In this document: in pieces, positions 7,095 through 60,098 of the stretch
How positions within the stretch are numbered: the first letter of the stretch is position 1
How the letters are laid out: each line of letters opens with the position of its first letter
Virus record (IMG/VR): IMGVR_UViG_3300045988_137581
Location: 1 to 60,712 of that record
Reading direction: 5' to 3' (one strand)
DNA: 60,712 nucleotides
DNA from: a virus
The notes under the pieces: model-generated
Seen by the model: the letters and a program-made list of their open reading frames with translations, nothing else
The model's database searches: none
Told to the model about the DNA's origin: nothing
Translations under genes and position numbers: made by a program

Positions 7095-7097
7095 TAT

Positions 7098-18831: not shown

Positions 18832-19434
18832 TTACTCAGTTAATCTGTGATAAAAGTCAAGCCTAATTCTTGAGTACACAGCCTCCACATTGATAAAAGC
18901 TCGTGAGTTATTAGGTGTCTCTGCATATACTTCACTACCTACGACCTCTGCAACCCAATCAATCCACTCCGGGGAGGTATATTGAGTAAGGGCTTTCCCT
19001 CTGTATCTATGATTATCAAAACGGCTGTTCCTATCCTCATGTAAGTTACAGAGCAATGTGTGAATCTTCGCTTTAGTTGCCTCTTTGTTGATGATATTGT
19101 TCTCTTCTCTCACTCTTTTGATAATACGGCAGACACGTTCAACAGCTAAGTCAAAATAAGCATTAGATATGTTCTTAACCTGTAATAGTGTTGCGGGTCT
19201 CATGCCGTCAGCAATATCATTCAGCAACTCATTCTGCTTGTTGGTCGTTTCTAATAGTTCTACTGTCATCTCGGTGTTGTTTTTGATTGAGCTATCAATA
19301 ATGCTCTTAAACCACTTGAATATTGCAACCCACATCAACAGAGACATGACAATGAATGCAGCACAGATAACTATCATCACGCCATAATCACTGATACCTT
19401 TTGCTACTTCCGTTACACTTTGTATCTCATTCAT
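18832..19434 (-). CDS. membrane protein, holin candidate (200 aa, one N-terminal TM)
   Basis: TM segment YGVMIVICAAFIVMSLLMWVAIF. Sits directly upstream of the endolysin. Confidence 0.45.
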   Translation of the reverse strand: MNEIQSVTEVAKGISDYGVMIVICAAFIVMSLLMWVAIFKWFKSIIDSSIKNNTEMTVELLETTNKQNELLNDIADGMRPATLLQVKNISNAYFDLAVERVCRIIKRVREENNIINKEATKAKIHTLLCNLHEDRNSRFDNHRYRGKALTQYTSPEWIDWVAEVVGSEVYAETPNNSRAFINVEAVYSRIRLDFYHRLTE

Positions 19435-20148: not shown

Positions 20149-23100
20149 TTACTCTATTTCTATTGGCCCGATGAAGGCGAGCCGAGAACCGCAGTACGTG
20201 GCCGAGTTCGAAGATGCGTTAAACGCGCGCGCACAAACGAGACCGAAGTACTCAGACGCATCGCTACCGCCACGACCAACGACACGGCATCTTTCCGCAG
20301 CATAAAAATAACTATCGGTATACCACTGATTGAAATTTGAACTATCTGTAGTAATTCTTGAAGCGATACAATCACAGTAACGACCGAAGCGAACACGACC
20401 AATATTGTAGTATGTCGAGAATGCTTCACAAGCCTGTACAGTACGTTCAGTATCTGTTGCAGGGTCGTAGATATGCCAATATCTATCAACCTTATCCGCT
20501 GTAATCGCAACACCTTTATTCTTTAAGTACGACTTGAAAGATACTACATTTACAGCAACATTGTCAGTCCATTCATAATTGCAGCCTACAAAATTCTGAA
20601 TGCCGAAGATTAAGTTCCCAATACGGCCTCCTCTTGGATATTGGCGAGTTTGATTTCCGTAAGTATTCAACGAGTTTGCCCCTGTTGTGTAACCCGCGTT
20701 GCTACCATAGCCTGCGTATGCCTGTATATCACGTGTCCCGACCAATGCCATTACAAGGTTTGCAATATCCTTGCTCATTTCGTAATCTACTAATTGATAG
20801 CCATTCTTGCGAAACATCGCAAGGTTTTGAAAATCTTTACACGTAAAGTTAGCTATAGCAGGAGCTGACAAATTGGTTACTTTACCATTTTCATCATACG
20901 TCCATTCGGTGCTTGTCTGTGATGTATCTGTACCGACTTTAGTCTTGACACCACTAATAGAGCGAATGCGCATCAGCCCATCAACCGATGCTCCATATAC
21001 ACCGACGAGACGGTCTGTTGTATGTACCCAATCAGGCTCAATAGCTTCAATAGCATTGCTATCGATAGCTATAGTTTCAAGGTCATCTAATCCTGTAAGA
21101 GATGAAAACACAAAACGTTTTGCTCCTTGTGGTACATCACAGAAAATGTACTCGCCGGGCGTGAAGTCAAAAAGCGCATGTGTAACGTGCATATTAAACA
21201 ATGATACGACATTGTCATTCTCGTCCACAAAAGCACCGCCGACAGTACTTGAATTTACGCCGGGGAAACGCACCTGTTTCATGCCCTCAACCTCTATTGA
21301 ATAGGTGTTGTGGTTAGCATTCTCGGTAATGACTAACGGATTTGCAACGCTATTACTATTGATGAATACAGATGACAACTCTTGCAAAAGAATATCGCTC
21401 AGTTTCTTTCTTGTTATCTTGTTGGCAGTACTAATAGGCTTGCCCTCCTGTGATGATGCAAAGAAGTGCTTCTGCTGATTTTTATAGTCGTTCACACCTT
21501 TGTACCAATATGGTTGCAAACGCTTCATAATGTCGAAGCCCTCGCCGGAGGTATCGCTTAAATCGAGTTCTGTTCCGTCCGCATAATAGTTGTAATTATC
21601 ATCACTTAACTGCCGACACTTCATTACTGCTTCATTTGCGTCCCAGATTGCCCTATAAGCATGACTATTTGCTTCTATGCGTGCAAAGTGTCCGCTCTTC
21701 TGATAAGTGTTTCCGAACAAATAGCCTGTTTTATTGTCCATGTTGCTAATGTTAGCACTATCTGCCTCTTCATCATTAAAGATGACCTGCGAGAATTGAG
21801 CATTATAGATATTCAATTCTTTAAAGTAATTTTGCAGTGATAACACCTCACTATCTTCAATAAGTTCCGTCAATATCCATCGTCCTGTAATACCGCTACA
21901 CTGTCCGATTTCATCGTATGCGTTGCCATTCGCATCAAGACCAATACAGCCGCTATTCTTGATACTGCGGAGCATATCAACGCTTGCCGATACATTAACA
22001 TTAGGAATACGTATTGTTTTTAATGCACTTGCCTCTGTAATCTGCTCCAATAAAGTCATGGTATTGATATATGGACAGTTGTTTAGATACACCTTTGCCA
22101 CCTTATCCATACCTGAAATGGTCAGTCCTCCGGGATAGGTTAATTTCGGAAGATTGTTAAGGATAATCTCAGTCATTGTATTAGGCAATGATAGTGTGTT
22201 GATAGGCGATGTCTCTGCAAGTGTGATAGTCGATAGAGATGTATTATCGGCAAACACAGCTACCAAGCGAGGACACTTAGATGCGTTTACCGTCTGCACC
22301 TCTGTATTGCGAATATCAAGTATCGTTAAGAACGGCATATCACCCAAATCAAGATTGGTCATATAACCTGTGTTGCCCGGTGACATCGTCCAATCTACGT
22401 GTGTCTCTCCTCCCAAATACAACTCCTGTAAGAGAGTCATTTTTGATAAGGTGTTACCGAATTGTGGGTCAATGCTTATTTCTTTCAAATCAATCATGCT
22501 CATTCTGTCTGCCTGATATATGTAGAGCATAATGTTCTCTCCGTGTTGGAAATTGCTGAATACGCCATCTTCACCTGCTTGCAGATAGATACCCTCAGTG
22601 ATATTACCGCTATCGTTACCGATACCGAAATATCCTGTCTTGGCAGCTCTGAAACGTATTACTGCACCGTCTTTTGCACCTATACGACCACCTATATAGC
22701 CACTTTCCGCCTTAAAGTCGCCACAACGATAGTAACCGTCTCTGATGCGCCAACGTTGCTCGATAAATGCAGGAAGAGAGGTTAAGCCGAGGCCTTGCAG
22801 AGCGTAGAAATAAATATCGCTATATCCTGTGTACTTGATATATTTGCGTTCTCCGTCAAAACTCGAAACGACTTTTTGCCATTTTTTCAGACGCTCACTA
22901 ACAAAGTAGTGATATGCTCCTTTTGGTGAAAATGGACCAGCACCTATACCAAGTGTATCAGGGAGTGAACGCATAGTATCAGCGATAGAAAGCAATGTAA
23001 TCGTGTTTCCGTTTTGGTCTATATCCATTGTCTGCTGACCCCTGATATTGTTCCAAAGCACTGAACCACGTCCTGCGTATGCACTATTTGTTAAGTCTCC

Positions 23101-26100
23101 CGGGTCAACTTCTGGGTCGATAGTCTGTCCTCCGTCGTTGTCTTTTCCGTTACAGGTATCGCAGTCATACACTTTATTACAATACATCCTTCGGGCGTTC
23201 ATACCATTCGCACCGCTATATACACCGTTTTTAACACTACAACCGTCCTCCAAGAACCACATCGGCTGCATATTCTTCGCCTGCTGGTCAACGGCAGCAA
23301 GATAGTCAGTAAACAGATAGTATGCAATAAGAGAATACGGATTAGCATACTTCCACATCTGCGTTTTCCAAATATTCTGCCATGTATCGGCAAGTTCCTC
23401 CTTGGAATAATCGCAACTATTACAGAATACAAGCATCTGATAAAGGTCGTATGGCACTTTGCGACCCATTGCCAAATCCACTTGTAATTGGTCATCGTCA
23501 ATCATGCACTCGAAATAGCGTGTCCACATCGGATATGTAGGCTGTCCGAGTTTCAGCTTGGTTACCCAAGATGCTTCGGCGGTGGTTGGCTCCATCATAT
23601 CGGCAATGCTACCAATGCCCTGCCACCAATTCAATCCGTCATAACTGAGCAGTTCGTAACCGCTCACAGGATTAAGCACTTTGCCTGTAATCTGCCACTT
23701 GCCGTTTACCTGCTTCATTTCGCCTTCTTGTGCTGTCCATTCGCCGCTTTCATATGCCATAAAGCGGTAGTTTTCTCCACAATAGAGCGACAACAGGTAT
23801 AGTTTATTCTTATTTGTAGTATTATCATTTTTGAAACGCATTTCTATCTCATCAAGCGTTTCGCCCTCTGTTCCGAAGTACTCAACAAATTCGCCATAGT
23901 TCACACAGCCTAAGTTGTACCCCGGTGTATTCTTAAAGCCAAGAGCAATTTGCTCGCCCTTATCCTCCTTCCAATTACCTTTTGCATGGAACCATGCATC
24001 TGTAAGGCTCTCCATCGTAGCACGAAATGCCGCAATAGGGTGATTGGCGGTAGAATGGTTCATCTGAAGCCCTGTCAAGTGAACATCTCCTTTTGTCCAA
24101 GTGCCGTCAAAAGCTCTCTGTGCCGGTGTCATATAGTTGCTGCCAAGCGCACGATAGGTGTCATTCATCATGTCGCAAACGCCGCAGTCGTTCGCCCCTG
24201 AACTATCAGAGTAATCCACTTTTACAGTGATAATGCTTACAGGTATTGAGTTTTCTTCCACTTTAACATATCCGAGTTGCATCAAGTTGTATGAAATCAA
24301 TGCATCGTCATTAGTGTATTCCGGATAAACAGGGGTAACAGCCCACCCACTATTCTTCCGCAAATAGAAGCGGTCATTCTTGATAGGCCGTTTTGCCGAT
24401 GTAGTACCTTGTCGTCTCCATTGAACATTTATCGCTTTAAAGCTACGCCACGGCATTGTCGGGTGGTAATAGTACAGCGTACAAGAAAACTTCTTGCTTG
24501 TGTCAATATCTCCGTCAAACGTATCAAATGTTTGTTGGTCTGCCACAACTACATAATACGGAATACCTCTCTCTGTTAGAGCGTCAAGTGTTGGTCTATT
24601 CTGGCTGTCAAGAACATTTTCTTTGTCAAACTCGGCAATCATGGCTGTGGTATCAGTAAGTTTGCACAAGTAGTTCTGAAAGGCTTGCGACCATTCATAG
24701 TGGCTGTCGTATGCAAGTACGTAATAAAGGTATAAGTCGCCGTCTGTCCCATTGAATTTAATAGTTTTACTGCTGAGGATTGCACCGCTGTTGCTGATGT
24801 AGCCGATACAACCGACCTCCTCACCGTCTAAGTACATCTTGATGCAAGAATAACTGCTTCCTCCACGAGTTACATAGATTGTGGACGGCTCAACAACTAT
24901 CGCCATAGTATGTTTCTCGCCGCAACGAAAACGCCGTTCTACTAATGCAGGCTGTCCTGTCTTGCAGAAGATAGTAGCACTATTGCCACACACATAGAAA
25001 CCAGCTCCGGTATCGGGGTCATAACACTCAATGAGTTTTGCATTCGCTGCTTTTATGTTCTTCGTTGCAAATGCGAATTGAAAAGCACATCCTGTGGTAC
25101 GTTCTACTGCTGAATTGCCAAATGGAGTATAGTCTGTTATCTCTGCCGTTACGTTCTCTGCTATTCTCAAACAACGCTCTCCAAGGTAGTCCACAAAACC
25201 ATTACTCGAATAGTTCGAACCATGCACAACCATTTCCACGCCATTGTTTTTAATAGTGTGGTCGCTCTCGCTGTTGCTACGGTTTGCAAAATCAAATCCG
25301 AACAAAGCACCGTCCTTTATGACAGCCCCGATAGCACTACCCATAACAGTTACTTTAATCTCATTTGTTGATACACTGCCGCTCTCGGCGTGTACAATAA
25401 TACTCTCAGTGCCATCAGTACGGTAGCCCTGTATCTGTTTGTTTACCTTGATTGTTTCAGCAATCATAGCATTTACCGAAGTTACAAGTTCATTACCATA
25501 ATACACATCGATGGGCGTTTCTGTCTTACCCGATGTGTATGCTGCAACCTCGACACTTAGGCTATCGTACAGACGTAAAGTACCGTTGTTGGTATCATTG
25601 AAACGGATAGCGACAATCGGAGTACTATTGTTTGCATCAACACACATGATAGTAGAGTAGATAGTGTTGCCTCTTACTCCCGATTTTATCTCCACTCCAT
25701 AGATACGTACAGGATAGGCACCATGCAAAAGCCTTTCTCCGCCACCAAACACATCGCTCGGATTTACAGAAATACTCTTAGTATAACTGTCGCTGACTGT
25801 AGCCTCGCCCAACTTCTTCCATTCGCCGTTATAGAGCATTTCAACGACTGCAAGTATAGAAGATGAGTTATTTGGGAACTTATAGAACTGACCTATGTTT
25901 TTAGACGAGCCGCCAACAGTCAATGCGGTACTGCTTGTGTAGTTGAGTGCCATAGGCTGCTCTACAGTTACATCAACAGCAACAATAGTAATAGCTTTCT
26001 TCTTTATGTTGCCGTCAGCATCACTTGCCTGCACAAAGAAACTCTTTGATGCTGCACTGCTGAAGTATTCAGTAAAGTTTAATTGAAATTTGTAATCAGT

Positions 26101-28092
26101 GGCACTTGCAGAACCAACTTCATTCATGTTTTCGCTGAATAATGTCAATCCAGTACTTGCATCAATAATCGCAAGACTTCGTATAACCCCCAATACCTCG
26201 TTACCATCAGGGTAGCTTACGCTTCTCAAAGCAACATTTACAAGAATATCAGAGCCGAATGCCACTGTAGGAGCAGCTTCCTCGAAATATATAGACAATG
26301 TGCTGCTCTCACTTGACCCACCACCTCCTGTGTTCTTCGGTATCTTGATTTGCACATCGAGAAGTTGAGTGCCGTTGAGGTTTACAGCTTTGTAATAAAT
26401 GTAATCCTCATCGCTTTCCTCATCAAAACCTCCTATTGCCTTTTGTTGCATCTCGTACGCCCCACCTGTCGAAAGAGCCTGTTTCCCGTTTTCTTCCGGA
26501 ACGTCTGATGTCTCAACTGAACTTCCACCATTAGCCGAACCGAACGCAACCCAAGGCTTTTCATCCGCAGGGTTGATGTCTGAAACCTCACGTGTAAACT
26601 GATATGCAAGCCATATAGGCGCACCGTTGCTATCAATGTCAGCTGTTTTAAAAGTCAGCACAACTCCACTCTTGAAGTACGATAATCCGCTCTCTCGCTC
26701 CAACTCCTGAACCGCCTGAATAGCTGTACCTAACGAATACTCAATATTATCGCAAAGTGAGTTTACATTGATTGTATTACCAATGCTTTCTCCATTTGTT
26801 CCGAAGTCAGTCCAATTGCTCTCTGTTGCCCAATCTGTAGTGTTTGTCCATTGCTTCGACTGCCAACCATTTTCAGAAAGGAACGTCAGCACAACCCCTG
26901 GTATCATAATAATCTCTGCACCACTGAGGTTTGCTATGCGGTCAAGTGCTACTGCAAAAGAAATTTCTCTATCCTTCAAGCCAAGCAACTCATTGACATT
27001 AACAATGCTTCGACTAATTATCTGTTGGGCTGCTATAGCTTGTTTAGTGTTGAGGTTAGAAATTTCATTCTTTGCAGTTTCCATTTCCTCTTGTAACAGC
27101 TTTCCATCGCTACCGGGGAAAGCTGTACTATCTGTATAACCCAAAGCAAGGTCAGAACCAATAGAGACAAGTGTGTCTCCACTCCAACGATAAGTAATGT
27201 TTTTTGACTTGTCCACATAAACTTTACCACTTTCCGGAATAACACCATTATTAGTTGCTGTTCCCCAAATGTTGCTGTCGCTCCACGATGGATAATAATA
27301 AGTTACAGCTTCCTCGTTATTATCTTCTGTTACTGTATGGGCAAGAAGGAATACATTATATTCCTTACTGTACACAACACTACATTGAGGGTCTGTTGAA
27401 TATAATTCTGATTGAGATTGTTGAATTACGATGTTTTCAACTGTTTTCTCAAACTCAATGACATCATCTACAAAACTTGGTAGGTAGTTTGCAGGTATCT
27501 TCCTATCACTATCCAATGGAGCAAGTCCACCTGCTGCACCTTTAGTGTTTTTTAACTCGGTAAGTTCATCACCAACTGCATTAGCCTTATCTTTCGCTTC
27601 GTTAGCGGTAGCCTCAACGCTATTGGTTTGAGCTTGAATAGAGTTGATATTGTTGCCTTGTGATGTCAGTTGCGTATCCTGTGCATTGTTTTTATCCTCA
27701 ATATTTTGAATATTTTGTTGCATCAAAGATATATCTCTTTGCAACTCTGCAACTGCTTCGTTATACTGCTCACTGTCAATAGTCGGATTGCCTCCTTCTT
27801 CTCCTGTGGCTACCCATTCACCGCCGTCACCGATATAAATCGGTCCGGGGAGAGTTCTGCCGACAATAGCCCACCACCCATCGTGAGGCAATGGGTAGGC
27901 TTCTCTCAATTTTTCTATTGTGGTGAATATACCTTTATTTGCACCTTTGATGTTCTTGGCATCAAGCCAACCTTCAACTTTTAAATTCCCTTTGAGTTGA
28001 GTGCTTCCTTGAACGGTTGCTTTGCCACCAACAGCTATGTTGCGACCAACGGAAACATCACCGTCAATCTGTGTTGCCTTTATTGAACTCAT
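20149..28092 (-). CDS. giant tail fibre / receptor-binding protein (2647 aa)
   Basis: The N-terminus is fibre-like (GAAGGLAPLDSDRKIPANYLPS after a coiled coil). Further along are a ConA/LamG-like block, a leucine-rich-repeat block and a lectin-like C-terminus. The start forms an ATGA overlap with the upstream gene. Confidence 0.8.
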   Translation of the reverse strand: MSSIKATQIDGDVSVGRNIAVGGKATVQGSTQLKGNLKVEGWLDAKNIKGANKGIFTTIEKLREAYPLPHDGWWAIVGRTLPGPIYIGDGGEWVATGEEGGNPTIDSEQYNEAVAELQRDISLMQQNIQNIEDKNNAQDTQLTSQGNNINSIQAQTNSVEATANEAKDKANAVGDELTELKNTKGAAGGLAPLDSDRKIPANYLPSFVDDVIEFEKTVENIVIQQSQSELYSTDPQCSVVYSKEYNVFLLAHTVTEDNNEEAVTYYYPSWSDSNIWGTATNNGVIPESGKVYVDKSKNITYRWSGDTLVSIGSDLALGYTDSTAFPGSDGKLLQEEMETAKNEISNLNTKQAIAAQQIISRSIVNVNELLGLKDREISFAVALDRIANLSGAEIIMIPGVVLTFLSENGWQSKQWTNTTDWATESNWTDFGTNGESIGNTINVNSLCDNIEYSLGTAIQAVQELERESGLSYFKSGVVLTFKTADIDSNGAPIWLAYQFTREVSDINPADEKPWVAFGSANGGSSVETSDVPEENGKQALSTGGAYEMQQKAIGGFDEESDEDYIYYKAVNLNGTQLLDVQIKIPKNTGGGGSSESSTLSIYFEEAAPTVAFGSDILVNVALRSVSYPDGNEVLGVIRSLAIIDASTGLTLFSENMNEVGSASATDYKFQLNFTEYFSSAASKSFFVQASDADGNIKKKAITIVAVDVTVEQPMALNYTSSTALTVGGSSKNIGQFYKFPNNSSSILAVVEMLYNGEWKKLGEATVSDSYTKSISVNPSDVFGGGERLLHGAYPVRIYGVEIKSGVRGNTIYSTIMCVDANNSTPIVAIRFNDTNNGTLRLYDSLSVEVAAYTSGKTETPIDVYYGNELVTSVNAMIAETIKVNKQIQGYRTDGTESIIVHAESGSVSTNEIKVTVMGSAIGAVIKDGALFGFDFANRSNSESDHTIKNNGVEMVVHGSNYSSNGFVDYLGERCLRIAENVTAEITDYTPFGNSAVERTTGCAFQFAFATKNIKAANAKLIECYDPDTGAGFYVCGNSATIFCKTGQPALVERRFRCGEKHTMAIVVEPSTIYVTRGGSSYSCIKMYLDGEEVGCIGYISNSGAILSSKTIKFNGTDGDLYLYYVLAYDSHYEWSQAFQNYLCKLTDTTAMIAEFDKENVLDSQNRPTLDALTERGIPYYVVVADQQTFDTFDGDIDTSKKFSCTLYYYHPTMPWRSFKAINVQWRRQGTTSAKRPIKNDRFYLRKNSGWAVTPVYPEYTNDDALISYNLMQLGYVKVEENSIPVSIITVKVDYSDSSGANDCGVCDMMNDTYRALGSNYMTPAQRAFDGTWTKGDVHLTGLQMNHSTANHPIAAFRATMESLTDAWFHAKGNWKEDKGEQIALGFKNTPGYNLGCVNYGEFVEYFGTEGETLDEIEMRFKNDNTTNKNKLYLLSLYCGENYRFMAYESGEWTAQEGEMKQVNGKWQITGKVLNPVSGYELLSYDGLNWWQGIGSIADMMEPTTAEASWVTKLKLGQPTYPMWTRYFECMIDDDQLQVDLAMGRKVPYDLYQMLVFCNSCDYSKEELADTWQNIWKTQMWKYANPYSLIAYYLFTDYLAAVDQQAKNMQPMWFLEDGCSVKNGVYSGANGMNARRMYCNKVYDCDTCNGKDNDGGQTIDPEVDPGDLTNSAYAGRGSVLWNNIRGQQTMDIDQNGNTITLLSIADTMRSLPDTLGIGAGPFSPKGAYHYFVSERLKKWQKVVSSFDGERKYIKYTGYSDIYFYALQGLGLTSLPAFIEQRWRIRDGYYRCGDFKAESGYIGGRIGAKDGAVIRFRAAKTGYFGIGNDSGNITEGIYLQAGEDGVFSNFQHGENIMLYIYQADRMSMIDLKEISIDPQFGNTLSKMTLLQELYLGGETHVDWTMSPGNTGYMTNLDLGDMPFLTILDIRNTEVQTVNASKCPRLVAVFADNTSLSTITLAETSPINTLSLPNTMTEIILNNLPKLTYPGGLTISGMDKVAKVYLNNCPYINTMTLLEQITEASALKTIRIPNVNVSASVDMLRSIKNSGCIGLDANGNAYDEIGQCSGITGRWILTELIEDSEVLSLQNYFKELNIYNAQFSQVIFNDEEADSANISNMDNKTGYLFGNTYQKSGHFARIEANSHAYRAIWDANEAVMKCRQLSDDNYNYYADGTELDLSDTSGEGFDIMKRLQPYWYKGVNDYKNQQKHFFASSQEGKPISTANKITRKKLSDILLQELSSVFINSNSVANPLVITENANHNTYSIEVEGMKQVRFPGVNSSTVGGAFVDENDNVVSLFNMHVTHALFDFTPGEYIFCDVPQGAKRFVFSSLTGLDDLETIAIDSNAIEAIEPDWVHTTDRLVGVYGASVDGLMRIRSISGVKTKVGTDTSQTSTEWTYDENGKVTNLSAPAIANFTCKDFQNLAMFRKNGYQLVDYEMSKDIANLVMALVGTRDIQAYAGYGSNAGYTTGANSLNTYGNQTRQYPRGGRIGNLIFGIQNFVGCNYEWTDNVAVNVVSFKSYLKNKGVAITADKVDRYWHIYDPATDTERTVQACEAFSTYYNIGRVRFGRYCDCIASRITTDSSNFNQWYTDSYFYAAERCRVVGRGGSDASEYFGLVCARAFNASSNSATYCGSRLAFIGPIEIE

Positions 28093-28727
28093 ATCAATAC
28101 AGATTTTACTAATTCATTAAATATTTTACTCTTATCGTAATCCCCAAAAGTCGCTAACACCAATGCAGCAATCATATATATTACCGCTGGATAGCACTTT
28201 TCGCAAACATCGATGGAGTTATTTTCTTCATTTATTATTGGATATGGAAGATATACAGCTCTTCTGACGTATGCTTCCGTACTCTTACTCGAATAAAACT
28301 CTAAAGCTTTCCCCTCTGGTCTGATGACAATAAAACATTTAGGATTTTGAATAGACCCTCGTATACCTTTGAATTTGGATCGCTGTTTTGCGTATTCGGG
28401 ACTATCCACAAATTCTGCATTAAAAACAGCTGTTTTCCAATCGCTCATTTCAAATACCAATAATCGCATAAAATCTTCCGGTAATAAGACCCATCCGCTT
28501 TCATGCTCTTGCCAATAGATAGCATCACCAAAATTATTGCCACTATCAAGTAGATGATGTGGAGCGGCAGAATGCACTCTTTTAACTGCTTCCTCTATCT
28601 TAGAGTGTATAATTTCGTTAACCGTGAGTGTATCTATATCGCCAATAGAAGAGAGATTGTCGTTAACCATATTTTGGTCAAGTGCAATTCTCACATCTCT
28701 CATGATGCTATCAATTAGATATATCAT
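28089..28727 (-). CDS. hypothetical virion protein (212 aa)
   Basis: Translationally coupled by 4-nt overlaps on both sides, between the capsid and fibre genes. Confidence 0.6.
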   Translation of the reverse strand: MIYLIDSIMRDVRIALDQNMVNDNLSSIGDIDTLTVNEIIHSKIEEAVKRVHSAAPHHLLDSGNNFGDAIYWQEHESGWVLLPEDFMRLLVFEMSDWKTAVFNAEFVDSPEYAKQRSKFKGIRGSIQNPKCFIVIRPEGKALEFYSSKSTEAYVRRAVYLPYPIINEENNSIDVCEKCYPAVIYMIAALVLATFGDYDKSKIFNELVKSVLI

Positions 28728-29113
28728 GACATTATGAATTTAATTCCATATTTGTCGGCTTCAGCTTCTATTGATTTTGGGTTGCGTAAGGCTGTTCTAC
28801 TAATTCCATATTTGTCGGCAAGATAATCTTTCGCCTCCTGCATGGAGTTTACTTTCACCTCGATTACCATTTTGTTCCCAATTTCAATTTCCTCTTCATG
28901 TGGTGTAGCGACAACCTCATATTCTTCTTTCAAAAAGAACAGCTTGCCAAAGTTATAATGTCTTTCAATCGCAATTTGAATATCTCTATCATCGGTTTTG
29001 AAAACACTGCCCTTGTTTGCAGAGTATGGTCTGAATGCAATGTGAACATTCTTTTTATTGGGGGTATGTACATTGATAGAAATGTCACTATAAGAAATAT
29101 ATGTCTTAATCAT
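28724..29113 (-). CDS. hypothetical virion protein (129 aa)
   Basis: First gene after the capsid terminator. It contains an internal 19-nt repeat (28741-28759 and 28801-28819) encoding ADKYGI twice. Confidence 0.6.
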   Translation of the reverse strand: MIKTYISYSDISINVHTPNKKNVHIAFRPYSANKGSVFKTDDRDIQIAIERHYNFGKLFFLKEEYEVVATPHEEEIEIGNKMVIEVKVNSMQEAKDYLADKYGISRTALRNPKSIEAEADKYGIKFIMS

Positions 29114-29180: not shown

Positions 29181-30620
29181 TTATTCCCCTATTTCTGCTG
29201 TTATCGGAGCTTGGGCAAGTCTCATTCTTGCATGAGCTTTGGCATATCTCAGATAAAGACAAGACACTTCTTGAATAACTACTGCATCTGTATTTCTTAT
29301 ACCTGCTTTTTTTAGGTCTAAGACATTCCTTGCCCAGCTCACATGAGTTTTTTTCGAGAGGTATTCCGGGTCCATAGCAAGACCATAATCACTCATTCCA
29401 TTTATGTCGAACAATTCATGGTGTATTGTCAAAACTTCGCCGAAATCCGTATCCCAAGATTTGAACTTCAAATTCCATACTTCGACAGTATCTTTAAGTC
29501 TGAACTTCTCGGATTTGATTTTGGAAAAAGCCGACAGCATATCTGAACCGCACAACAGAATTTTCCGTTTATTTCCGATACCTGTTCCTACGAATAAATC
29601 CTTGGTAATATCTACAAGGTTTTCGTCGGAGATGATAGCACATTTTTTCGTGGCATCCCATTCTCCGACTTCAATATCTTTACCTGCCATCCACCAGATA
29701 CCACCGGTAAACCAAGTATCCATTCCATCTTTTGAGACGTGATTGATTTTATTTCTTACGCCGAACAGATATGTGTTTTCCATTGCAAGCCTCATGTCAT
29801 AAATACCATCCTCTTCGATGTCAGAGAAATTCCAGTTGACTTCTTTCTTCGCAATCTTGTCGAACGTAGATTGTTCTATCTGTATCATGAAGTTCTGACA
29901 ATATTGTGTCTCAGGTGTAGGCAAGTTATTAAAACGACCTGTCTGTACATCCAATTCCCCACAAGCCTTTCCCATACGCACAAGAGTTGTTCCGTTAGGT
30001 ATTTCGGGGATAAGAATAGGCTGTCCGTTACTATCTTTTTTGCCATTCACGGCATACACAGTCGGCATATTGGTCGAGCTATCCTTGCCGCAAACGCACA
30101 GCACTAAGTCCGGGGTCAATTCACCACTCGTGTAAGCTGTACCATCAGGCTTGGTTATAGCCTTAACTCCGACAACTCTGATAGTGTCATCTAATGTGAA
30201 CATATTTACGTCATCAACCGGAAGCGACGTACTCGCTCCTGAGGCCATAGCGGTTAGTTTTGCATTCGTTGTGCATTTTATCTCTCTTGTGCCGACAGAG
30301 TAATACTTAACCTCGAACGAGCCTGTTTGTGAAGATTTGGCATAACGACTTATCTGGTCAATCGGGGTAGCCATCGGACGTATCTTGATGATACGCTTAT
30401 CGACATCGCTCAGGTATAGATTGTCATCCCCATTTTCCCTTCCGAATGTCTCAGTAGCGATACCAGCAGGCGGAGCTGTATTACCACCATTGCCACCTTC
30501 TGTTACACCGGCATCCGGTAATGCTGCTGCATCCGCCATGAATATACCACTGGACGCATTGAATACTGATGCTAATGCCAATAGCACCAATCCTCCCAAA
30601 AATTTGAAAACTTTTTTCAT
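29181..30620 (-). CDS. major capsid protein candidate (479 aa; possible true start at Met28, nt 30539)
   Basis: Based on size, position directly after the scaffold-like gene, and the strong terminator that follows it. The N-terminal 27 aa look like a signal peptide. Confidence 0.55.
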   Translation of the reverse strand: MKKVFKFLGGLVLLALASVFNASSGIFMADAAALPDAGVTEGGNGGNTAPPAGIATETFGRENGDDNLYLSDVDKRIIKIRPMATPIDQISRYAKSSQTGSFEVKYYSVGTREIKCTTNAKLTAMASGASTSLPVDDVNMFTLDDTIRVVGVKAITKPDGTAYTSGELTPDLVLCVCGKDSSTNMPTVYAVNGKKDSNGQPILIPEIPNGTTLVRMGKACGELDVQTGRFNNLPTPETQYCQNFMIQIEQSTFDKIAKKEVNWNFSDIEEDGIYDMRLAMENTYLFGVRNKINHVSKDGMDTWFTGGIWWMAGKDIEVGEWDATKKCAIISDENLVDITKDLFVGTGIGNKRKILLCGSDMLSAFSKIKSEKFRLKDTVEVWNLKFKSWDTDFGEVLTIHHELFDINGMSDYGLAMDPEYLSKKTHVSWARNVLDLKKAGIRNTDAVVIQEVSCLYLRYAKAHARMRLAQAPITAEIGE

Positions 30621-30645: not shown

Positions 30646-31434
30646 CTACTTATATGTTCTTCGTTTTTCGCCGCCTCTTTCCCAAATCGATTGAGAATTA
30701 TAGCTGTTATCGATAGCCCCTAAATCGGGCATTCTCTTATCCCCGCCACCATTCTTTCCGCCAAGATTTGCTGTGCCATCATTCCTATTGCGTTTTCTTA
30801 GTTTCTCTTCTATTTTGGTATTTTTGCCTCTCAATTCACCCTCCGTTTCAGCATTTTGAATCGAAGCATCATAATTGAGAGCTTTGAGAGCCATATCGAT
30901 GCTCTCCTCCGAGAATTTACCAAGAATCCCATCTCTTATAATACTCAACAAGAACTCCATTGCTTCATCGATATCATCATCGGTTAACCCTCTGTCGGAT
31001 TGCATCTTTTCTATTGTAGATAAAGTCTGAGTTATATTCTGTTGATATTGCTCTTCAAAATCTTTTTCTTTTGCAATTTGTTCTGCAAACTCCTTATTCG
31101 CTTGTGCGATTGCTTCTTGTTTAGATGGGTCTTCGAGAGCCTCCTTAAAATCATCTCCGAATTTTCGTATCAAACCGACGATAGGGTCTTCTCCGTTTTT
31201 CCAATCTATAAGGAATGCCGCAGAGCGAGGATTGCTCGCAAATAAATCAGAAAGAGCCTTTTCTCTTGACTTATACCCCTCTATTTCTCCCTCATAAACC
31301 CCATAATCATCATCGATTTGTCCGAACAAATCATCATCCGTTGCGAATTGTTTATCGGGGTATTTTTTCTTCAATCTTTGCAGATATTTTTCCCTGTTGG
31401 TTGTAACATTTTGATTTTCAGCGTTATTTGCCAT
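30646..31434 (-). CDS. scaffolding protein candidate (262 aa)
   Basis: Acidic, helical and low in complexity. Sits directly upstream of the capsid candidate and is the first gene of the operon. Confidence 0.5.
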   Translation of the reverse strand: MANNAENQNVTTNREKYLQRLKKKYPDKQFATDDDLFGQIDDDYGVYEGEIEGYKSREKALSDLFASNPRSAAFLIDWKNGEDPIVGLIRKFGDDFKEALEDPSKQEAIAQANKEFAEQIAKEKDFEEQYQQNITQTLSTIEKMQSDRGLTDDDIDEAMEFLLSIIRDGILGKFSEESIDMALKALNYDASIQNAETEGELRGKNTKIEEKLRKRNRNDGTANLGGKNGGGDKRMPDLGAIDNSYNSQSIWERGGEKRRTYK

Positions 31435-31549: not shown

Positions 31550-31975
31550 ATGAAAACAAAAGGTGCAGTAATGGAGCTATCCGAGGAAAGAATTGACGAT
31601 ATAATGAGGTGTTATAAGGAGTACCTGCATAATTGCAATTATATCAATACACAAGAATTATATTCGACTATTGCGAACATGCCATCAAGACGGTTTTGGG
31701 TAAGCGATAAACGAGCATTCGTTGTAGTATCTCTCCTTATTAAAGGAGAAGAAGAAATTCTGAATAAAATGCGACCGCTAAAAAGAGAGATGTACCGAGA
31801 AATACATAAGAGAGTAATAACCCTAAGAAACGAAAATCGAATAACCTCTGTCGCTAAATTATGCTCTTATGTAATCAATCAACCTGCACCAAAATTCTAT
31901 TTGGCACCGGGTTCGATTAAAATGATAGTATCAAAATCAAGAAGAAGGTGGTATCAAAAACAACAAAAACAATAA
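31550..31975 (+). CDS. hypothetical protein (141 aa); position is compatible with a small terminase or DNA-binding protein
   Basis: First gene of the terL operon, with a basic C-terminus (KSRRRWYQKQQKQ). Confidence 0.5.
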   Translation: MKTKGAVMELSEERIDDIMRCYKEYLHNCNYINTQELYSTIANMPSRRFWVSDKRAFVVVSLLIKGEEEILNKMRPLKREMYREIHKRVITLRNENRITSVAKLCSYVINQPAPKFYLAPGSIKMIVSKSRRRWYQKQQKQ

Positions 31976-32430
31976 CCCTGATACTATCAATCGGGATAAT
32001 GATAACATCATTCTTACCCATCGATTTTTATATTGTTGGAATATCTAAGAATTGTTCCTTGGAGCAAAGGTTGGTATATCACTTTTTTCATGTCGGATTT
32101 TTCCATGCACTGACTAATTCGATAGCTTTATTATCTATTTCTTTTTCTCGCAATCTCTATTGCTGGCAACTCATAGCAGCCTATGCAATAGCAATAACAA
32201 TACCACAACTATGCTTATACGACAAACCGACCGTAGGGCTATCCGCAATCATATACGCTTTATTCGGCATAATTTCATTGTCCGCTAAGCGAAAAGTAAT
32301 ATATAATATCTTTATCGTTGTGTGTATTTCGATAGGTTTTTTGTTTCCTTATAGTAATGCATTGATACACCTATATTGTTATATAGGAGGCTTTGTCGTA
32401 TCTGTGCTGACGACTCCAATCAAAATATGA
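31948..32430 (+). CDS. rhomboid-family intramembrane serine protease-like protein (about 160 aa, 6 TM; start uncertain, GTG 31948 or ATG 31999)
   Basis: FFHVGFFHALTNSIAL fits the TM2 H..xH...N motif. VGLSAIIYALFGI fits the TM4 GxSx motif (E. coli GlpG has GLSGVVYALMGY). ALIHLYCYIGGF fits the TM6 histidine. The stop overlaps the terL ATG (ATGA). Confidence 0.7.
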   Translation: MVSKTTKTITLILSIGIMITSFLPIDFYIVGISKNCSLEQRLVYHFFHVGFFHALTNSIALLSISFSRNLYCWQLIAAYAIAITIPQLCLYDKPTVGLSAIIYALFGIISLSAKRKVIYNIFIVVCISIGFLFPYSNALIHLYCYIGGFVVSVLTTPIKI

Positions 32431-34508
32431 ACCCGATTGATAAACTCATAGAGGAGAATAACAAAAGGAAAGAAACAGTTTATTCCGAGTTTAAACCGAT
32501 AACAGGTTTCGGGTCCATCGGAGAAAGGGAAGAATTGTACATTAAAGATTTCCCTTTACAAACACAATACCTCCCAAAAGAGATGCTTGAAGTACCTTTG
32601 GTGCGGGCAATACAAGAAGAAGGTTCGCTAAGTAATTACGCGAAAAAAATAGCATTCTCGGCAGGCACATACAAGGAAGATAGAATAAAAGTAATAGACG
32701 CTTTTACAAGGATACGATGTAAATACGATTTTGCTTTCTGGGCGGCATTGCTCGTTTACATCAAAAACAAGGGTGGTGGCGAAGATGTACATTTCCGTCT
32801 AAATAGTCCTCAACGAAAACTCATTGCAAAACTCGAGTGTATGAGATTGCAAGGCATGCCTATACGTCTCATACTACTAAAAGCTCGTCAATGGGGAGGC
32901 AGCACAGCGACACAAATATATATGGCGTGGTTACAACTCGTACATAAAGTAGGTTTGAATAGTCTTATTGTAGGGCATGTAAAAGATGCATCTACCGAAG
33001 TTAAAGATATGTTTGACAAGCTCATTAGAGGGTATCCTATCGAAATGCTCTACGGGATTGGCGAGCCATACAATGATAACGAGCCTAAAATAGTAGGAGT
33101 AGGACAGAGCGGAAACATTCACCGCATACCTCAAAGGAATTGCAAGATTAAAGTCGGTTCAGCCGAGAGACCGAACTCTGCAAGAGGCGGGGATTACAAT
33201 CTCGTGCATTGCACAGAAGTCGGACTGTGGGTGACTACGGAAGGGAAGACCCCTGAAGATATTGTCAGGTCTGCCTGTTCCGGTGTACTTTTAAAGCCTT
33301 ATACCATGATTGTATACGAGAGTACAGCTAATGGAACAGGGAATTTTTTCCACAGGGAATACGAAGCTGCAAAAAACGGAATATCACAATTCGACAATCT
33401 ATTTATTTCGTGGTTCGAAATTGAACAATACACAGCAGGAATAGATAACATACAAGATTTTGCCACTAAACTATGGGAAAACAGAAATAACGAGAGCATA
33501 GTTAGCGACCGTGAGGAAAGTGGGAAGTATCTGTGGTGGTTGTGGGAAAAAGGAGCAACTCTCGAAGCCATCAAGTGGTATATCTTGGAGAGAAGCAAGT
33601 ACACCAACCATGGAGACATGGCAAGCGAGTACCCAAGCGACGACATCGAGGCTTTCGTGCATTCTGGAACGATGATATTCGACAAATACAAAGTAGAACA
33701 ATTTAAACCGACCTGTCGTCCGGCTCGATATATAGGGGATATATATGCAGATGGAGATAGCGGAAAAACTGCATTAAGTAATTTGAGATTTTCGGAAGAC
33801 AAGCAAGGTCTTTTGCATATATGGGATATGCCGGAAATATATGAGGACGAAATTGTAACAAATAGATATATTGTTGTGGTGGATATAGGTGGACGTTCTC
33901 GCAAAGCAGACTTTTCCGTTATTCTTGTTATAGATAGGCTGTTTATGATATATGGCGACAAGCCTGTTGTTGTCGCTCAATGGTATGGACATATCGATAT
34001 GGATATTCTTGCGTGGAAAGCAGTTCAAGTTGCCACATTTTACGATAAAGCATTGCTCGTTATAGAGAGCAATACGCTCGAAACCCGAGACAAAGAGCGT
34101 CAGGTTGATGGAGACCAATCACATTTTATTCTAAACCAAATCAAAGATGTATATCCAAACTTATATGCAAGAAAACAATCAGAAGAAGCAATCCGTGAAG
34201 GATTACCACAAAAGTACGGCTTCCACACGAACATTGCGACAAAACCGATGATTATATCAACTCTTATAAAGGTTATCAGAGACAATCTTTATATCGAACG
34301 AGACGAACGCTGTCTTGATGAATATCTGTATTACGAGAAAAAGAAAAACGGAGCTTTTGGGGCAATAGATGGGAAACATGATGACTTATTGATGACAAGA
34401 GCAATAGGTCTTCATATTTGTTTTTTCGAGATGGACATGCCCGCAATACATCCTCGCCTAAAGTTTCGCAATGAGAAAAGCAAACCGATAACAGAAGCAA
34501 CAATTTAA
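32427..34508 (+). CDS. terL: terminase large subunit (693 aa from ATG 32427; track ORF starts at TTG 32376)
   Basis: ATPase motifs KARQWGGSTA (Walker A-like) and GGDYNLVHCTEVG. Nuclease motifs VVVDIGGRSRKADFSV and GKHDDLLMTRAIGLH. Confidence 0.85.
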   Translation: MNPIDKLIEENNKRKETVYSEFKPITGFGSIGEREELYIKDFPLQTQYLPKEMLEVPLVRAIQEEGSLSNYAKKIAFSAGTYKEDRIKVIDAFTRIRCKYDFAFWAALLVYIKNKGGGEDVHFRLNSPQRKLIAKLECMRLQGMPIRLILLKARQWGGSTATQIYMAWLQLVHKVGLNSLIVGHVKDASTEVKDMFDKLIRGYPIEMLYGIGEPYNDNEPKIVGVGQSGNIHRIPQRNCKIKVGSAERPNSARGGDYNLVHCTEVGLWVTTEGKTPEDIVRSACSGVLLKPYTMIVYESTANGTGNFFHREYEAAKNGISQFDNLFISWFEIEQYTAGIDNIQDFATKLWENRNNESIVSDREESGKYLWWLWEKGATLEAIKWYILERSKYTNHGDMASEYPSDDIEAFVHSGTMIFDKYKVEQFKPTCRPARYIGDIYADGDSGKTALSNLRFSEDKQGLLHIWDMPEIYEDEIVTNRYIVVVDIGGRSRKADFSVILVIDRLFMIYGDKPVVVAQWYGHIDMDILAWKAVQVATFYDKALLVIESNTLETRDKERQVDGDQSHFILNQIKDVYPNLYARKQSEEAIREGLPQKYGFHTNIATKPMIISTLIKVIRDNLYIERDERCLDEYLYYEKKKNGAFGAIDGKHDDLLMTRAIGLHICFFEMDMPAIHPRLKFRNEKSKPITEATI

Positions 34509-34520
34509 AGCAATAACACT

Positions 34521-34811
34521 ATGAACATTTTTTCAAAGTTAAAATTCACGGTAACGCTAATCCGAGCCACAAAGATGGCAGACGAGAAGCATAAAGAAAA
34601 TGGTGATACATATTATGTAGTACCAATGATTGACAAAAGGTTAATGGTCATCAACCGTCGAGATTTCAAGGTACTGAAAAGAAAGAATTATATACCGAAG
34701 CAAGCTACACTATCGGACTTAAAACGAGAGTGTTTTTACGCAACAGACATTCCGGAATCGAAAGTCAAGGAGAAAAAGAAGCAATTCATGAAATGGATTA
34801 CTTCCGAATAA
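34521..34811 (+). CDS. hypothetical protein (96 aa)
   Basis: ATG ORF followed by a 12-bp hairpin. Confidence 0.5.
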   Translation: MNIFSKLKFTVTLIRATKMADEKHKENGDTYYVVPMIDKRLMVINRRDFKVLKRKNYIPKQATLSDLKRECFYATDIPESKVKEKKKQFMKWITSE

Positions 34812-38881: not shown

Positions 38882-41800
38882 TTATAGAGCATCTATCAAT
38901 CTCACCTTTTTTACTACCTGCTTCTTCAACTCGTTGAGTTCTTTCTTTAACTTATCCTCTTCTTCCTTGGTTGTTGCCTCTTTCAACATTTTCTTGCTCT
39001 TTTTAATCTTGGAATAAAGATTCTTGTCGTCGAATGCAGCCAAATGAGCATATTCTTTCGACTTTTTTATTTCTTGCAATCTCTTAACCGCTTTTTTGTC
39101 GCCTTGGGCTTTATCTTTTTCATAGGCTTTTATCAAACGCATTGTCTCCTTATATTCTTCCTCTAATTGAAAGAACTCGTTATTCAAAGCTCTATTCTTC
39201 GTTCGTTCGTCTCCATTGGTTACGAACCTATTCACAAGAGGTATGTTTCGCCAATCAAAGTCTTTCCCAACCCCTGCCTCATACAACTTAACAAGTTGAT
39301 TTGGTAACGTCCAAAAGCCACCTCCATACGACCTTAACAAGTACTCTATTTCCGCAGGATTCAAATCTACCTTTCCTTTCTCATATCTTGTACCACCGCT
39401 CATTTCATTCAAATAAGCACACAAATCGACAATCTTAGTATTCGCATTCTTATACGCTTTCGTCCATTCCGGCATATTTTTATTGAATGGAGTGTCCTTA
39501 TATATCGGTAATCCGTACCATGAACGATTTTTCTGCACTTCAAGCATTGGCTTTATCGCACTCGGAGTAAACGGAGCTAACAAATCAAGCCCATCTTTAT
39601 TGTTTGTCTGCCCCTCCATTATATCGATAGGAGTAAGCTTCGATATTTGAGAAGCAAACTCCGCAACACTCAATGGCTCATTGTGGAACATTTTACCTCC
39701 TAACAATTCCCCCATTCCATAAATGGCTTGATATTCGATAGGCAAAGGTACTTTAATCCAACTCTTACCCGGACCCGGGAATACGAAGTTATTTCTCCTT
39801 ATGGTTTCGGGCAAGTCATAATAGCTGCCTCTTTTATCATCATCTCCGTCATCTCCATCACTAACCAATTTCTGTATAAACATTCCGAGAACGAACAATG
39901 CAGATGCAACACTTAACGACCTTCCGGGGTGTTGCGACAAAGCTTTACCGAAGTTACCGAACGTACCCTGTATCGCTGCATTCCAGAAGATAAACAGCGT
40001 ACGTCCGGCACCGCTGACGAAAGCACCGCTCTTGCCCAATAGAGTTTGACCCTGCGACTTCAAAAAACGGTCTCCCGCTCCTTTCTTGTTGAAGTTTACA
40101 CTTATTTCTTTTGCGTCGAATATCGAACGACCTATATCTCGTCCCAAACTGCGAGAGGTCATAAACGCAGCGAAACGAGCTTTCGTTTCGACAGAACGCC
40201 CTATTTCATCAAGCCAATTAGCGAAGTGTTTTCTCCATTCCTCAAAAGGCATCTTTTTATTCAACGTCTTTAATGCTTTCTCAATCTCTTTCTTATGTTC
40301 CTCCACGTCGAGCATTCGCCTGTAACCGGTCTCGCCTCCGTTGTCAAGGAATTGTTTGAACATAGCTTCCACTCTGTTGTTTGTATCAAGTGTACCTTTT
40401 CTGTACTTGGCAAACAACCCTTTCAACGACCACGCATTAACGAAGTAGTTTAACGCAAAACGTCTCCAATAATCAGCACCCTCTTTAACGAAAGCCATAC
40501 TGTTGGAATAGATTAAATCTCGCAAGAAGTTACTTGCAATGAAGTCCGGTTGAAGTGTGGTATATAATGCACTCAAAGTCCTGTTAACGTCTCCAACCAA
40601 TGAAATAATCGAACCGATAGAACCCCTCATATCGTTATTATCGGGATTTGTCAATCCATTTAACGCTTGTGCTGCTCTCGGATTTCCGTTGATTGTAATG
40701 ACTACATTTTTACCTCTACGCTTTACGATTACTTGATGCTGGTGCAAATCGCTATTATTCACAACCCTGTATGGGATATTGTCAGCCTCTCTGCCTCTCT
40801 TGTATTTTTCAGGCTCTTCTTCTGCCAATTGCATGAGTTTGTCATTGAACTCGGCTAATTTCCGCTCAACCTCTTCCGGAGTATCGCTCTCGTTCAATGT
40901 TGGCAACAACGGTTTCCATTCCCCGGCAACATCATCATATTGCAACCACAAATCGCTAATACTATATGCATCACTCGGGTGGTTGAGAACAAATGTCAAG
41001 AAACGATTTTTAACGAACCTATTCCTGTTACCCTGCATAATCGTACTCTCTGCCATTGATTGCAGATAAGCAAGAGGATTATCCGCCTTTGACCTACGAC
41101 CGTTCGCCTTCTTAATCGGAGCATTGAATGTCCCGTGGCGTTCGTTCAGGTACGCATACTCTTCATCGGCAGTTTTCTCGTCAAAACCTCTCAAAGGTAT
41201 GTAGTAATTGTACATACTCGATATAGCCTCGTAAGTCTCCTTGCTTATAAGACCGCACTCCAACGACTTGGATAAGATTGCATCATTTATCTCTTTCAAT
41301 AAATCCCATATAGGCTCGGTCTCGTGCATACTCTCGTATTCCGCCACCATTCGTTCCGCTTCCAACTCGGCTTCCGCAACGTCTTCTATTCCCGTCAATG
41401 CTGTAAGTCCGGCATAATCCCTTTGCCTGTTCTTCTCAATCATCTTTTCCAACTCCTCCTCGGATTTTCCTGATTTTTCGAGTTTAGACTTCGCATCTCG
41501 TTCAGCCATATAAACATTTCTTTCCAAGCCGTGCTTAGCCATCATGTATTCTATCAGTTCATCTCTTTCGTCGGCAGTTGTTGCCAATTTTGAAATAACT
41601 ACGTTCAACGGTTGGAAGAAAGTACGGTTGAACGCCTCCACCTCTTTTTCGTTAATACTCGACAGAGCGTTCTCTCCTGTATAAGCATTCTCGAAAGTAG
41701 GCACATCTGCAATATTGAAATCTTTCTTACCATTCGCCTCATACACAGACCCCATAAGCTCCTTCAATCCAAGCATACTATCCTGCATAGCCTCCTTGAA

Positions 41801-60072: not shown

Positions 60073-60090
60073 AACAATATATATTATTGC

Positions 60091-60098
60091 CAAAAATA
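60091..60098 (-). promoter_or_regulatory. -7 box TATTTTTG (minus strand) for the ejection-protein/polyvalent/portal operon
   Basis: CAAAAATA on the + strand, 19 nt upstream of ATG 60072. Confidence 0.45.

Follow-up and report, generated by a model that had tools for sequence, protein, structure and literature searches.

The window analysed here is the whole 60,712-nucleotide (nt) stretch of the IMG/VR virus record IMGVR_UViG_3300045988_137581, an apparent phage genome of ~61 kb with open reading frames (ORFs) of 6612 and 2647 amino acids (aa). Immediately before the gene of the large terminase subunit (TerL) lies an ORF with the features of a minimal rhomboid intramembrane serine protease, and the head genes beside it include, on the opposite strand, that of a major capsid protein (MCP) beginning with a hydrophobic leader; these two genes and the link between them are the subject of this work (coordinates in Table 1). 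The original prediction, made from the sequence letters, had described the first of them as a protein of about 160 aa with six hydrophobic helices and three rhomboid hallmarks. The ORF was confirmed, six long helices were found in its AlphaFold2 model, and the motifs quoted are all present, FHVGFFHALTN at residues 47-57, GLSAIIYALFG at 97-107 and IHLYCYIGG at 140-148.

The GTG start of the rhomboid gene is supported by the fact that the homologs align from residue 1, with M1, K4, K7 and L11 invariant. At its 5′ end the gene overlaps the upstream 141-aa gene by 28 nt (31948-31975), and at its 3′ end the ATGA overlap with the terminase gene had been described correctly. This tight junction is kept in the relatives, where rhomboid and TerL genes overlap in 114 of 131 non-redundant junctions, most commonly as ATGA (32 of the 131), and are separated by gaps of 1-21 nt in the remainder. 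Such a conserved, operon-style packing is consistent with the translational coupling of rhomboid and TerL that had been proposed, a coupling read from the gene arrangement.

In a hidden Markov model search, one of the checks suggested with the original prediction, the window protein scored above the cut-off of the Pfam family PF01694 (Rhomboid; 25.1 bits against a gathering cut-off of 22.6, E=2.2e-5, residues 42-155). None of the PHROG families was matched, the head proteases of that collection included, and phmmer with the single rhomboid sequence gave zero matches to the PDB sequences. A profile built from 30 divergent family members reached GlpG of Haemophilus influenzae in the PDB with E=6.6e-8 and GlpG of Escherichia coli with ~2e-7, and in the alignment with this profile the family H-x4-H-x3-N, the GLSG and the His of transmembrane (TM) helix 6 pair with the corresponding GlpG residues. 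The AlphaFold2 model, obtained from seven sequences (pLDDT 82.6, pTM 0.79), has a short L1 element in addition to the helices. Its comparison with the GlpG fold, also suggested beforehand, gave the expected answer, the top nine Foldseek matches in the PDB being all GlpG or iRhom structures (probability 0.94-1.00, TM-score 0.57-0.69) and those after them having a probability of 0.06 at most.

The conservation of the catalytic Ser and His in homologs, on which the identification had been said to hinge, was examined in an alignment of the window rhomboid with 145 diverse homologs (n=146), and S99 was found in 146/146 and H141 in 144/146 sequences. Further along TM6, G148 is kept in 134/146 and position 144 is C, A or S instead of G. 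The L1 region is short, R41 is present in 129/146, and the position preceding it is variable (Q in the window protein). Rhomboids usually carry a Trp before the L1 Arg (the WR motif), and both WR and the TM6 GxxxG are common, not universal, features; the TM2 HxxxN residues have an oxyanion-hole role. In a divergent subset (33% mean column identity), invariance is confined to M1, H48, H53, N57, P86, G97, S99 and H141. The family is large and compact: the profile search of 1.84 billion representative proteins returned 686 rhomboid relatives at E<=1e-3, 100 of which reached E<=1e-30, and almost all are 155-175 aa long. The median ratio of nonsynonymous to synonymous substitution rates (dN/dS) is 0.15, compared to 0.04-0.05 for TerL and the MCP core. 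The rhomboid gene is under purifying selection, and it is the fastest-evolving gene of its module (mean pairwise distance 0.50 vs 0.28 for TerL and 0.20 for the MCP core).

As judged from sequence, the ORF 31948..32430 belongs to the rhomboid protease family, its catalytic set is complete and maintained by selection, and its product is probably active in proteolysis within the membrane. With GlpG of E. coli and H. influenzae it shares the six-TM core fold (TM-score up to 0.69, profile E=6.6e-8), the aligned GxS, TM6 His and TM2 H-x4-H-x3-N, and the Lys/Arg distribution predicts the same N-in/C-in topology, with the active site facing the periplasm. It differs from GlpG in its length of ~160 aa, in the short L1 keeping only the Arg of WR, in the C/A/S in place of the first TM6 Gly and in its terminase-adjacent position. 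Assignments to other families were tried and rejected. The window protein scored 20.2 bits with the rhombosortase model (NCBIfam TIGR03902, cut-off 84; three other family members 14-24 bits) and did not match the GlpG equivalog (NCBIfam NF008155), for which the best family member scored 16.6 bits against a cut-off of 335. Loss of the catalytic Ser, His or both, which defines iRhom/derlin-type pseudoproteases, was not observed, both residues being conserved. Membership in the known soluble prohead protease families was discarded on the ground that both fold and sequence matched rhomboid membrane proteins exclusively; the phage rhomboid may nevertheless work like a maturation protease without belonging to those families.

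Among 50,697 phage records, a rhomboid homolog was detected in two only, the Bacteroides phages BS-TP4 and BKO1-TP3 (42-44% identity), in both of which the gene occupies the same position as in the window; megablast of the phage records returned no match. The GenBank labels of these two proteins are 'rhomboid domain-containing protein' for BS-TP4 gp8 and, wrongly, 'glycoside hydrolase' for BKO1-TP3. The survey of related contigs that had been recommended found the rhomboid conserved in position. Two different rhomboid query alignments led to 160 and 146 confirmed IMG/VR stretches, and every IMG/VR locus long enough to show the module has the order MCP (-), scaffold (-), small protein (+), rhomboid (+) and TerL (+). 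Nine further loci with the same module were found in GTDB genomes, all of Bacteroidales (Phocaeicola, Bacteroides, Prevotella, Alloprevotella, Butyricimonas, Muribaculaceae and Cryptobacteroides), and two of the nine are prophages, since they lie inside megabase-scale contigs. The rhomboid gene belongs to the core of a lineage of Bacteroidales phages and prophages, in which its place is always the one between the small protein gene and TerL.

Three roles had been suggested for it, namely cleavage of a host membrane protein, control of lysis timing, or processing of a phage protein with a TM-like N-terminus at 30540-30620. The last of these regions is the N-terminus of the MCP, which begins MKKVFKFLGGLVLLALASVFNASSGIFMADAAALPDAG, and processing of this protein is the role that the comparative data support, with the MCP as the putative substrate. 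The MCP leader is real coding sequence and is found in frame in all leader-type relatives; its dN/dS is 0.30. A basic start is followed by a hydrophobic stretch with conservatively varying residues, by a run of small residues and by LPDAG; a linker rich in Gly, Thr and Asp then leads to the conserved DVDKRI core, at which the match to Pfam starts. The consensus of the leader end in 69 non-redundant sequences is G-A-S-S-G-V-x-M-A-x-A-S-x-L-P-D-A-G-K-T, in which LPDAG hardly varies; M(-6) was found in 65 of the 69, A(-5) in 68 and A(-3) in 62. The published recognition motif of rhomboids has a hydrophobic P4, a small P1 and a hydrophobic P2′ residue (PMC2941825), and the leader end V-x-M-A↓x-A matches it with V at P4, A at P1 and A at P2′. 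In the window, the candidate processing site would be M28-A29↓D30-A31↓A32. The leader probably inserts into the membrane, and its basic N-flank and acidic C-flank predict an N-in orientation like that of a Sec signal peptide. An apparent case of a rhomboid with a non-hydrophobic MCP N-terminus, on contig L071, was an artefact of a long upstream in-frame ORF extension, and the leader is present there.

The presence of the rhomboid follows the type of MCP. For sampling from the MCP side, we used the window MCP and the most divergent leader-type MCP as queries and scored the loci that contained all three of leader-type MCP, small gene and TerL: a rhomboid was found in 109/109 leader-type MCP loci with the slot covered. 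Close-family loci that had been scored as having a leader and no rhomboid are contigs ending before the slot. The leaderless MCP of contig L131, used as query, retrieved 52 loci, with a rhomboid only on the L131 contig itself. In the remaining 51 the MCP, scaffold, small protein and TerL are present and the small gene abuts or overlaps TerL, so that the rhomboid slot is covered and empty; the MCP N-termini of the rhomboid-less loci are uniformly polar. When all loci encoding a full-length TerL are tallied, rhomboid and leader occur together in 135 and are both missing from 47; a rhomboid unaccompanied by a leader was met on a single contig, which entered the tally twice.

In neighbour-joining trees the rhomboid-bearing and rhomboid-less states are interleaved and do not form two clades. 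The numbers of parsimony changes of rhomboid and leader were 6 and 6 on the TerL tree, 5 and 6 on that of the small protein, and 3 and 4 on that of the scaffold. On the TerL tree, which has 1 discordant among 43 scorable taxa, the rhomboid needed 4-6 changes in 100/100 bootstrap replicates, compared to 13.6 for random labels. The scaffold and small protein genes lie between those of the MCP and the rhomboid, and their trees likewise mix both states, so that simple block inheritance fails as an explanation; selection against mismatched combinations of rhomboid and MCP is the more economical reading. In a mirror-tree test, the pairwise distances of the rhomboid correlated at 0.85-0.96 with those of each of the leader, the MCP core, the scaffold, the small protein and TerL and are hence non-discriminating, and the partial correlation of rhomboid and leader is weak (0.37, with non-independent pairs).

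Furthermore, we scanned the neighbouring genes of 199 rhomboid-bearing and 43 rhomboid-less loci. The backbone common to both groups consists of a 212-aa gene, the scaffold, the small protein, TerL and the portal. Besides the leader-type MCP, the rhomboid itself (198/199 vs 0/43) and the 129-aa gene (184/199 vs 0/43) were specific to the rhomboid-bearing group.

Taken with the catalytic set, these results suggest, with confidence that we would place midway between doubt and assurance, that the protein is an active rhomboid of minimal size and that what it does is linked to the leader-type MCP, the likeliest link being processing of the leader at the membrane. The co-occurrence suggests an unreported membrane-linked step in the maturation of the capsid protein, in which the leader would be the direct substrate of the rhomboid. 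In this lineage the MCP is made with a signal-peptide-like hydrophobic leader ending in a conserved small-residue motif (V-x-M-A-x-A-S, then LPDAG); at the membrane, the rhomboid would either remove this leader or set the MCP free from it, and the mature MCP would then be able to assemble. The rhomboid would thereby replace a conventional prohead protease; none is annotated in BS-TP4, and none was seen in the window, whose genes were only partly scanned. More tentatively, and with doubt prevailing, one may go further and regard this HK97-type MCP as a membrane-tethered precursor and the rhomboid as a capsid maturation or release enzyme in a membrane-coupled head assembly.

Several observations weigh against processing of the leader by the rhomboid. 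Contig L131 encodes a leaderless MCP of 543 aa (26% identity) and yet has an intact rhomboid, which overlaps TerL by ATGA. Rhomboid-bearing phages have the nearest counterparts (74-88% identity) of its 221-aa gene, scaffold, small protein, rhomboid, TerL and 96-aa gene, and exactly two adjacent genes come from the rhomboid-less group, the MCP (89% to L204) and its 175-aa neighbour. L131 is a mosaic, and its intact rhomboid could be explained either by a swap too recent for decay or by a rhomboid function beyond the leader. Canonical bacterial rhomboid substrates are N-out, with the recognition motif N-terminal of the TM segment, and the MCP leader is predicted to be the opposite in both respects; the orientation could be reconciled only by a loop-back model as proposed for Star, and in any event the main body of the MCP has to finish in the cytoplasm. 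The leader end fits the A-x-A↓S rule of signal peptidase I equally well, and a host enzyme could cut it. The 96-aa gene after TerL is also specific to the rhomboid-bearing group (172/199 vs 0/43), and in rhomboid-less phages such as L174 the portal gene follows directly after TerL, so the MCP is not the sole co-varying partner. In the remote phages L342 and L343, the MCP (~6001-7440 in each, 27-29% identity, in a different gene order) has a strongly hydrophobic N-terminus, e.g. MKRFTKFYPVFAIIAVIVCAFVM, and no rhomboid is present within the 11-13 kb examined; among these gut-phage contigs, MCPs with hydrophobic leaders may not be confined to the one lineage. The rhomboid-less group was examined for ~7 kb on each side of the MCP, and a rhomboid relocated elsewhere is possible. 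Finally, the cleavage of the leader is argued here from comparative sequence data.

Some of these points lend themselves to the main rival explanation, possible but in our view less likely, in which the protease is active on another phage protein of lysis or ejection, such as the DUF6808, the 80-aa two-TM or the T7-gp14-like protein of Table 1, or on a host membrane protein, and its link with the MCP reflects co-inheritance of a cassette. This would account for the rhomboid kept by L131 after replacement of its MCP by the leaderless type, for the equal specificity of the 96-aa gene and for the non-canonical orientation of the leader, and the window does encode several single-TM phage proteins, three of which are common to BS-TP4. 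On the other hand, the TerL tree shows 4-6 joint switches of rhomboid and MCP type and a single discordant taxon, although the intervening genes have recombined, and the rhomboid gene is placed among head and packaging genes, outside the lysis block. The only canonical N-out candidate, the holin-like protein at 18832..19434, was rejected as a conserved partner, having no homolog in BS-TP4, which carries both rhomboid and leader; no alternative partner was shown to co-vary with the rhomboid in our searches, which reached close relatives only.

It is considerably less probable that host signal peptidase I cuts the leader at A-x-A and that the rhomboid alters the secretion, insertion or quality-control machinery of the host, or clears stalled leaders; an MCP with a true signal peptide would then be membrane-tethered and not exported. 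The leader has all the features of a Sec-type signal peptide, including the conserved A-x-A, and the co-occurrence would be explained without a substrate in reversed orientation. Bacterial rhomboids do act on polytopic or orphan membrane proteins, as described for YqgP with MgtE (PMC7231995). This explanation is nevertheless purely inferential, its host target being hypothetical, and the strictly conserved M-A-x-A and LPDAG would also fit a dedicated recognition site for the phage enzyme.

The two weakest explanations are effectively excluded. There is a very slim chance that the protein is a pseudoprotease or structural factor of rhomboid fold, like iRhom or derlin, which inserts or extracts the MCP leader without cutting: inactive proteins of this fold exist and iRhom structures are among the fold matches, but pseudoproteases are defined by loss of catalytic residues, and here the Ser, the His and the TM2 H and N are conserved (n=146) despite ~30% identity elsewhere. 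That the ORF is a chance one or a functionless, decaying fragment derived from a host has a negligible probability, the marginal single-sequence Pfam score (25.1 vs 22.6) and the lack of a PHROG family being outweighed by hundreds of homologs of the same length, a fixed gene position, a dN/dS of 0.15 and a confident fold.

Processing of the MCP leader by the rhomboid, which we favour, has partial parallels in known systems. Cleavage of TatA in Providencia stuartii activates TatA. The AarA/TatA pair resembles the one proposed here in that a dedicated rhomboid trims a short N-terminal extension of a specific protein (PMC2941825). However, TatA is N-out and retains its TM segment after cleavage, whereas the MCP leader is predicted to be N-in, its motif lies C-terminal of the hydrophobic segment and the entire segment would go. 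The rhombosortase/GlyGly-CTERM system is the closest NCBIfam neighbour (TIGR03902), though far below the cut-off. Rhombosortase has been tied to a specific sorting signal through genomic co-occurrence, and the logic is the same here; the difference is that the signal is N-terminal, not C-terminal, and that the partner is a capsid protein. The prohead proteases (HK97 gp4, T4 gp21) are similar in the proposed removal of an N-terminal MCP segment and in having their gene among head and packaging genes. Known prohead proteases are soluble and packaged inside the procapsid, whereas an intramembrane enzyme would need a membrane-bound assembly intermediate.

Capsid proteins with signal peptides are also known. 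One of them is M13 procoat, whose signal peptide is cleavable, but the M13 coat protein is assembled at the membrane and contains a further TM segment, features for which no counterpart is seen in the window MCP. The phages of Porphyromonas gingivalis (Nixviridae) have signal-peptide-bearing MCPs, and their cleavage was attributed to prohead proteases (PMC10367356). In the Nixviridae and the filamentous procoat, a prohead protease or the host leader peptidase, and no rhomboid, is the proposed or known protease.

At the level of annotation, phage rhomboids are not new. The BFVD contains two 'GlpG-like' proteins of 155-160 aa from uncultured gut Podoviridae (TM-score 0.73-0.74, 24-27% identity) and further rhomboid-fold proteins from siphoviruses, uncultured Caudovirales and an algal giant virus. 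A 'rhomboid membrane protein' is listed, without functional study, for the Stenotrophomonas phages DLP3 and DLP5 (PMC7326821), and in DLP3 the gene is found among moron and lipopolysaccharide-modification genes, not head genes (PMC7326821). The paper on BS-TP4 and BKO1-TP3 leaves the rhomboid unmentioned (PMC12694917), and the virus-encoded rhomboids in databases are automatic or passing annotations. Our literature search found no paper on the function of a phage rhomboid, nor any in which a rhomboid is connected with the maturation of capsids, with a prohead protease or with a terminase operon. Likewise, we found no earlier report of a rhomboid gene that belongs to the core of a widespread gut phage lineage and holds a fixed position there, of a catalytic set invariant across a large dedicated phage rhomboid family, or of a rhomboid co-varying with a leader-bearing capsid protein.

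Natural substrates are known for few bacterial rhomboids, and comparative genomics here offers a large compact phage family (~160 aa) with a specific candidate substrate. If the proposal is true, there would be a membrane-linked step in the assembly of tailed-phage capsids, and an intramembrane enzyme, a type undescribed for tailed phages, would join the known kinds of capsid maturation protease. It would also provide a minimal, genetically tractable rhomboid-substrate pair of unusual geometry, N-in with the motif after the TM segment. The rhomboid and leader system is carried by two cultured phages, BS-TP4 and BKO1-TP3. BS-TP4 was detected in 31% of 930 viromes (PMC12694917), and the phages concerned are common in the human gut.

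Table 1. Features of the window discussed in the text, with their positions, strands and the observations on which the assignments are based.
Feature	Coordinates	Strand	Remarks
Predicted minimal rhomboid intramembrane serine protease gene	31948..32430	+	160 aa, GTG start, 6 TM helices; Pfam PF01694, AlphaFold2, Foldseek
TM2 motif H48-x4-H53-x3-N57	32089..32118	+	H48, H53, N57 in 146/146; aligns with GlpG HLSNLHILFN / HFSLMHILFN
Catalytic serine motif (GxS) G97-L98-S99, start of TM4	32236..32244	+	G97, S99 in 146/146; codons ggg-cta-tcc; aligns with GlpG GLSG
TM6 catalytic H141 followed by C144 and G148 (H-x2-C-x3-G)	32368..32391	+	Variant of H-x2-G-x3-G; H141 aligns with TM6 His of H. influenzae GlpG
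ATGA overlap, rhomboid stop and TerL start	32427..32430	+	Rhomboid TGA 32428-32430, TerL ATG 32427-32429
Large terminase subunit (TerL)	32427..34508	+	693 aa from ATG 32427; phrog_2, E=4.9e-17; conserved in all related loci
Major capsid protein (MCP), SU10_MCP family	29181..30620	-	479 aa; Pfam PF17236 E=7.6e-30, match from residue 66; phrog_26635
MCP leader, residues 1-38	30507..30620	-	Basic MKKVFK, hydrophobic FLGGLVLLALASVF, small-residue NASSG, then I-F-M-A-D-A-A-A, LPDAG
Small protein gene at the usual small-terminase position	31550..31975	+	141 aa; phrog_27246 (PHROG)
Scaffold-like acidic protein, between MCP and packaging genes	30646..31434	-	262 aa; phrog_22323; 'scaffold' from position and composition only
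Basic protein gene directly after TerL	34521..34811	+	96 aa; phrog_22658, no TM segment, no Pfam family
Gene adjoining MCP, changes with MCP type	28724..29113	-	129 aa; diverged 175-179-aa counterpart in leaderless-MCP phages
Holin-like protein, lysis block	18832..19434	-	200 aa, single-TM, N-out by charge
Amidase_3 endolysin, lysis block	18220..18819	-	Soluble
DUF6808 protein, lysis block	17745..18239	-	Single-TM; homolog in BS-TP4
Two-TM protein	11053..11295	+	80 aa; homolog in BS-TP4
T7-gp14-like protein, hydrophobic N-terminus	59593..60153	-	186 aa; Pfam PF24072 E=2.4e-5, just below cut-off; homolog in BS-TP4
Giant ORF	38882..58720	-	6612 aa
Giant ORF	20149..28092	-	2647 aa; 69% identity to BS-TP4 gp14

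Concerning the other genes of the module, the small protein gene and the scaffold-like protein are both found in rhomboid-bearing and rhomboid-less relatives, and in the latter the small gene abuts or overlaps TerL. The product of the 96-aa gene could be a second partner of the rhomboid. Some product names in the records PQ571277 and PQ571269 are misleading (L001 6428-8524 and 8880-9101; L002 5920-6438): besides the 'glycoside hydrolase' of BKO1-TP3, TerL is labelled 'tail spike protein', and BS-TP4 gp5 is annotated as 'Sec translocon accessory complex subunit YajC'. A Sec component would have been of interest in view of the signal-peptide-like leader, but gp5 lacks a TM segment and shows a weak SH3-like similarity only, which makes that annotation spurious.

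Away from the head genes, the BS-TP4 homolog of the 80-aa two-TM protein sits near the BS-TP4 endolysin, and this protein may be the true holin, displaced in the window genome. The gp14-like protein and the adjoining giant ORF hint at a podovirus-like ejection apparatus. BS-TP4 gp14 is the target of a diversity-generating retroelement (PMC12694917); no gene matching the reverse transcriptase and integrase regions of BS-TP4 was found in the window, and the window phage may lack both, or the window may be incomplete.

In 40/43 of the rhomboid-less loci, a 66-aa ORF is found between scaffold and MCP (L174 6788-6988, +). In L174 it resembles the polar N-terminal region of the adjoining MCP (PSQGSAGLRTHIGGACTTVS vs PSAGSAGLQTQLGGAPTTVS). 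The possibility of a detached leader was rejected, the ORF being polar and resembling the remnant of a partial duplication of the MCP N-terminus. Lastly, the contig IMGVR_UViG_3300045988_074564 (77,791 bp; L142, L195) has two head modules near its opposite ends, one with rhomboid and leader-type MCP, the other rhomboid-less with a leaderless MCP, and may have arisen as a chimeric assembly, as prophages in tandem or as a co-integrate.

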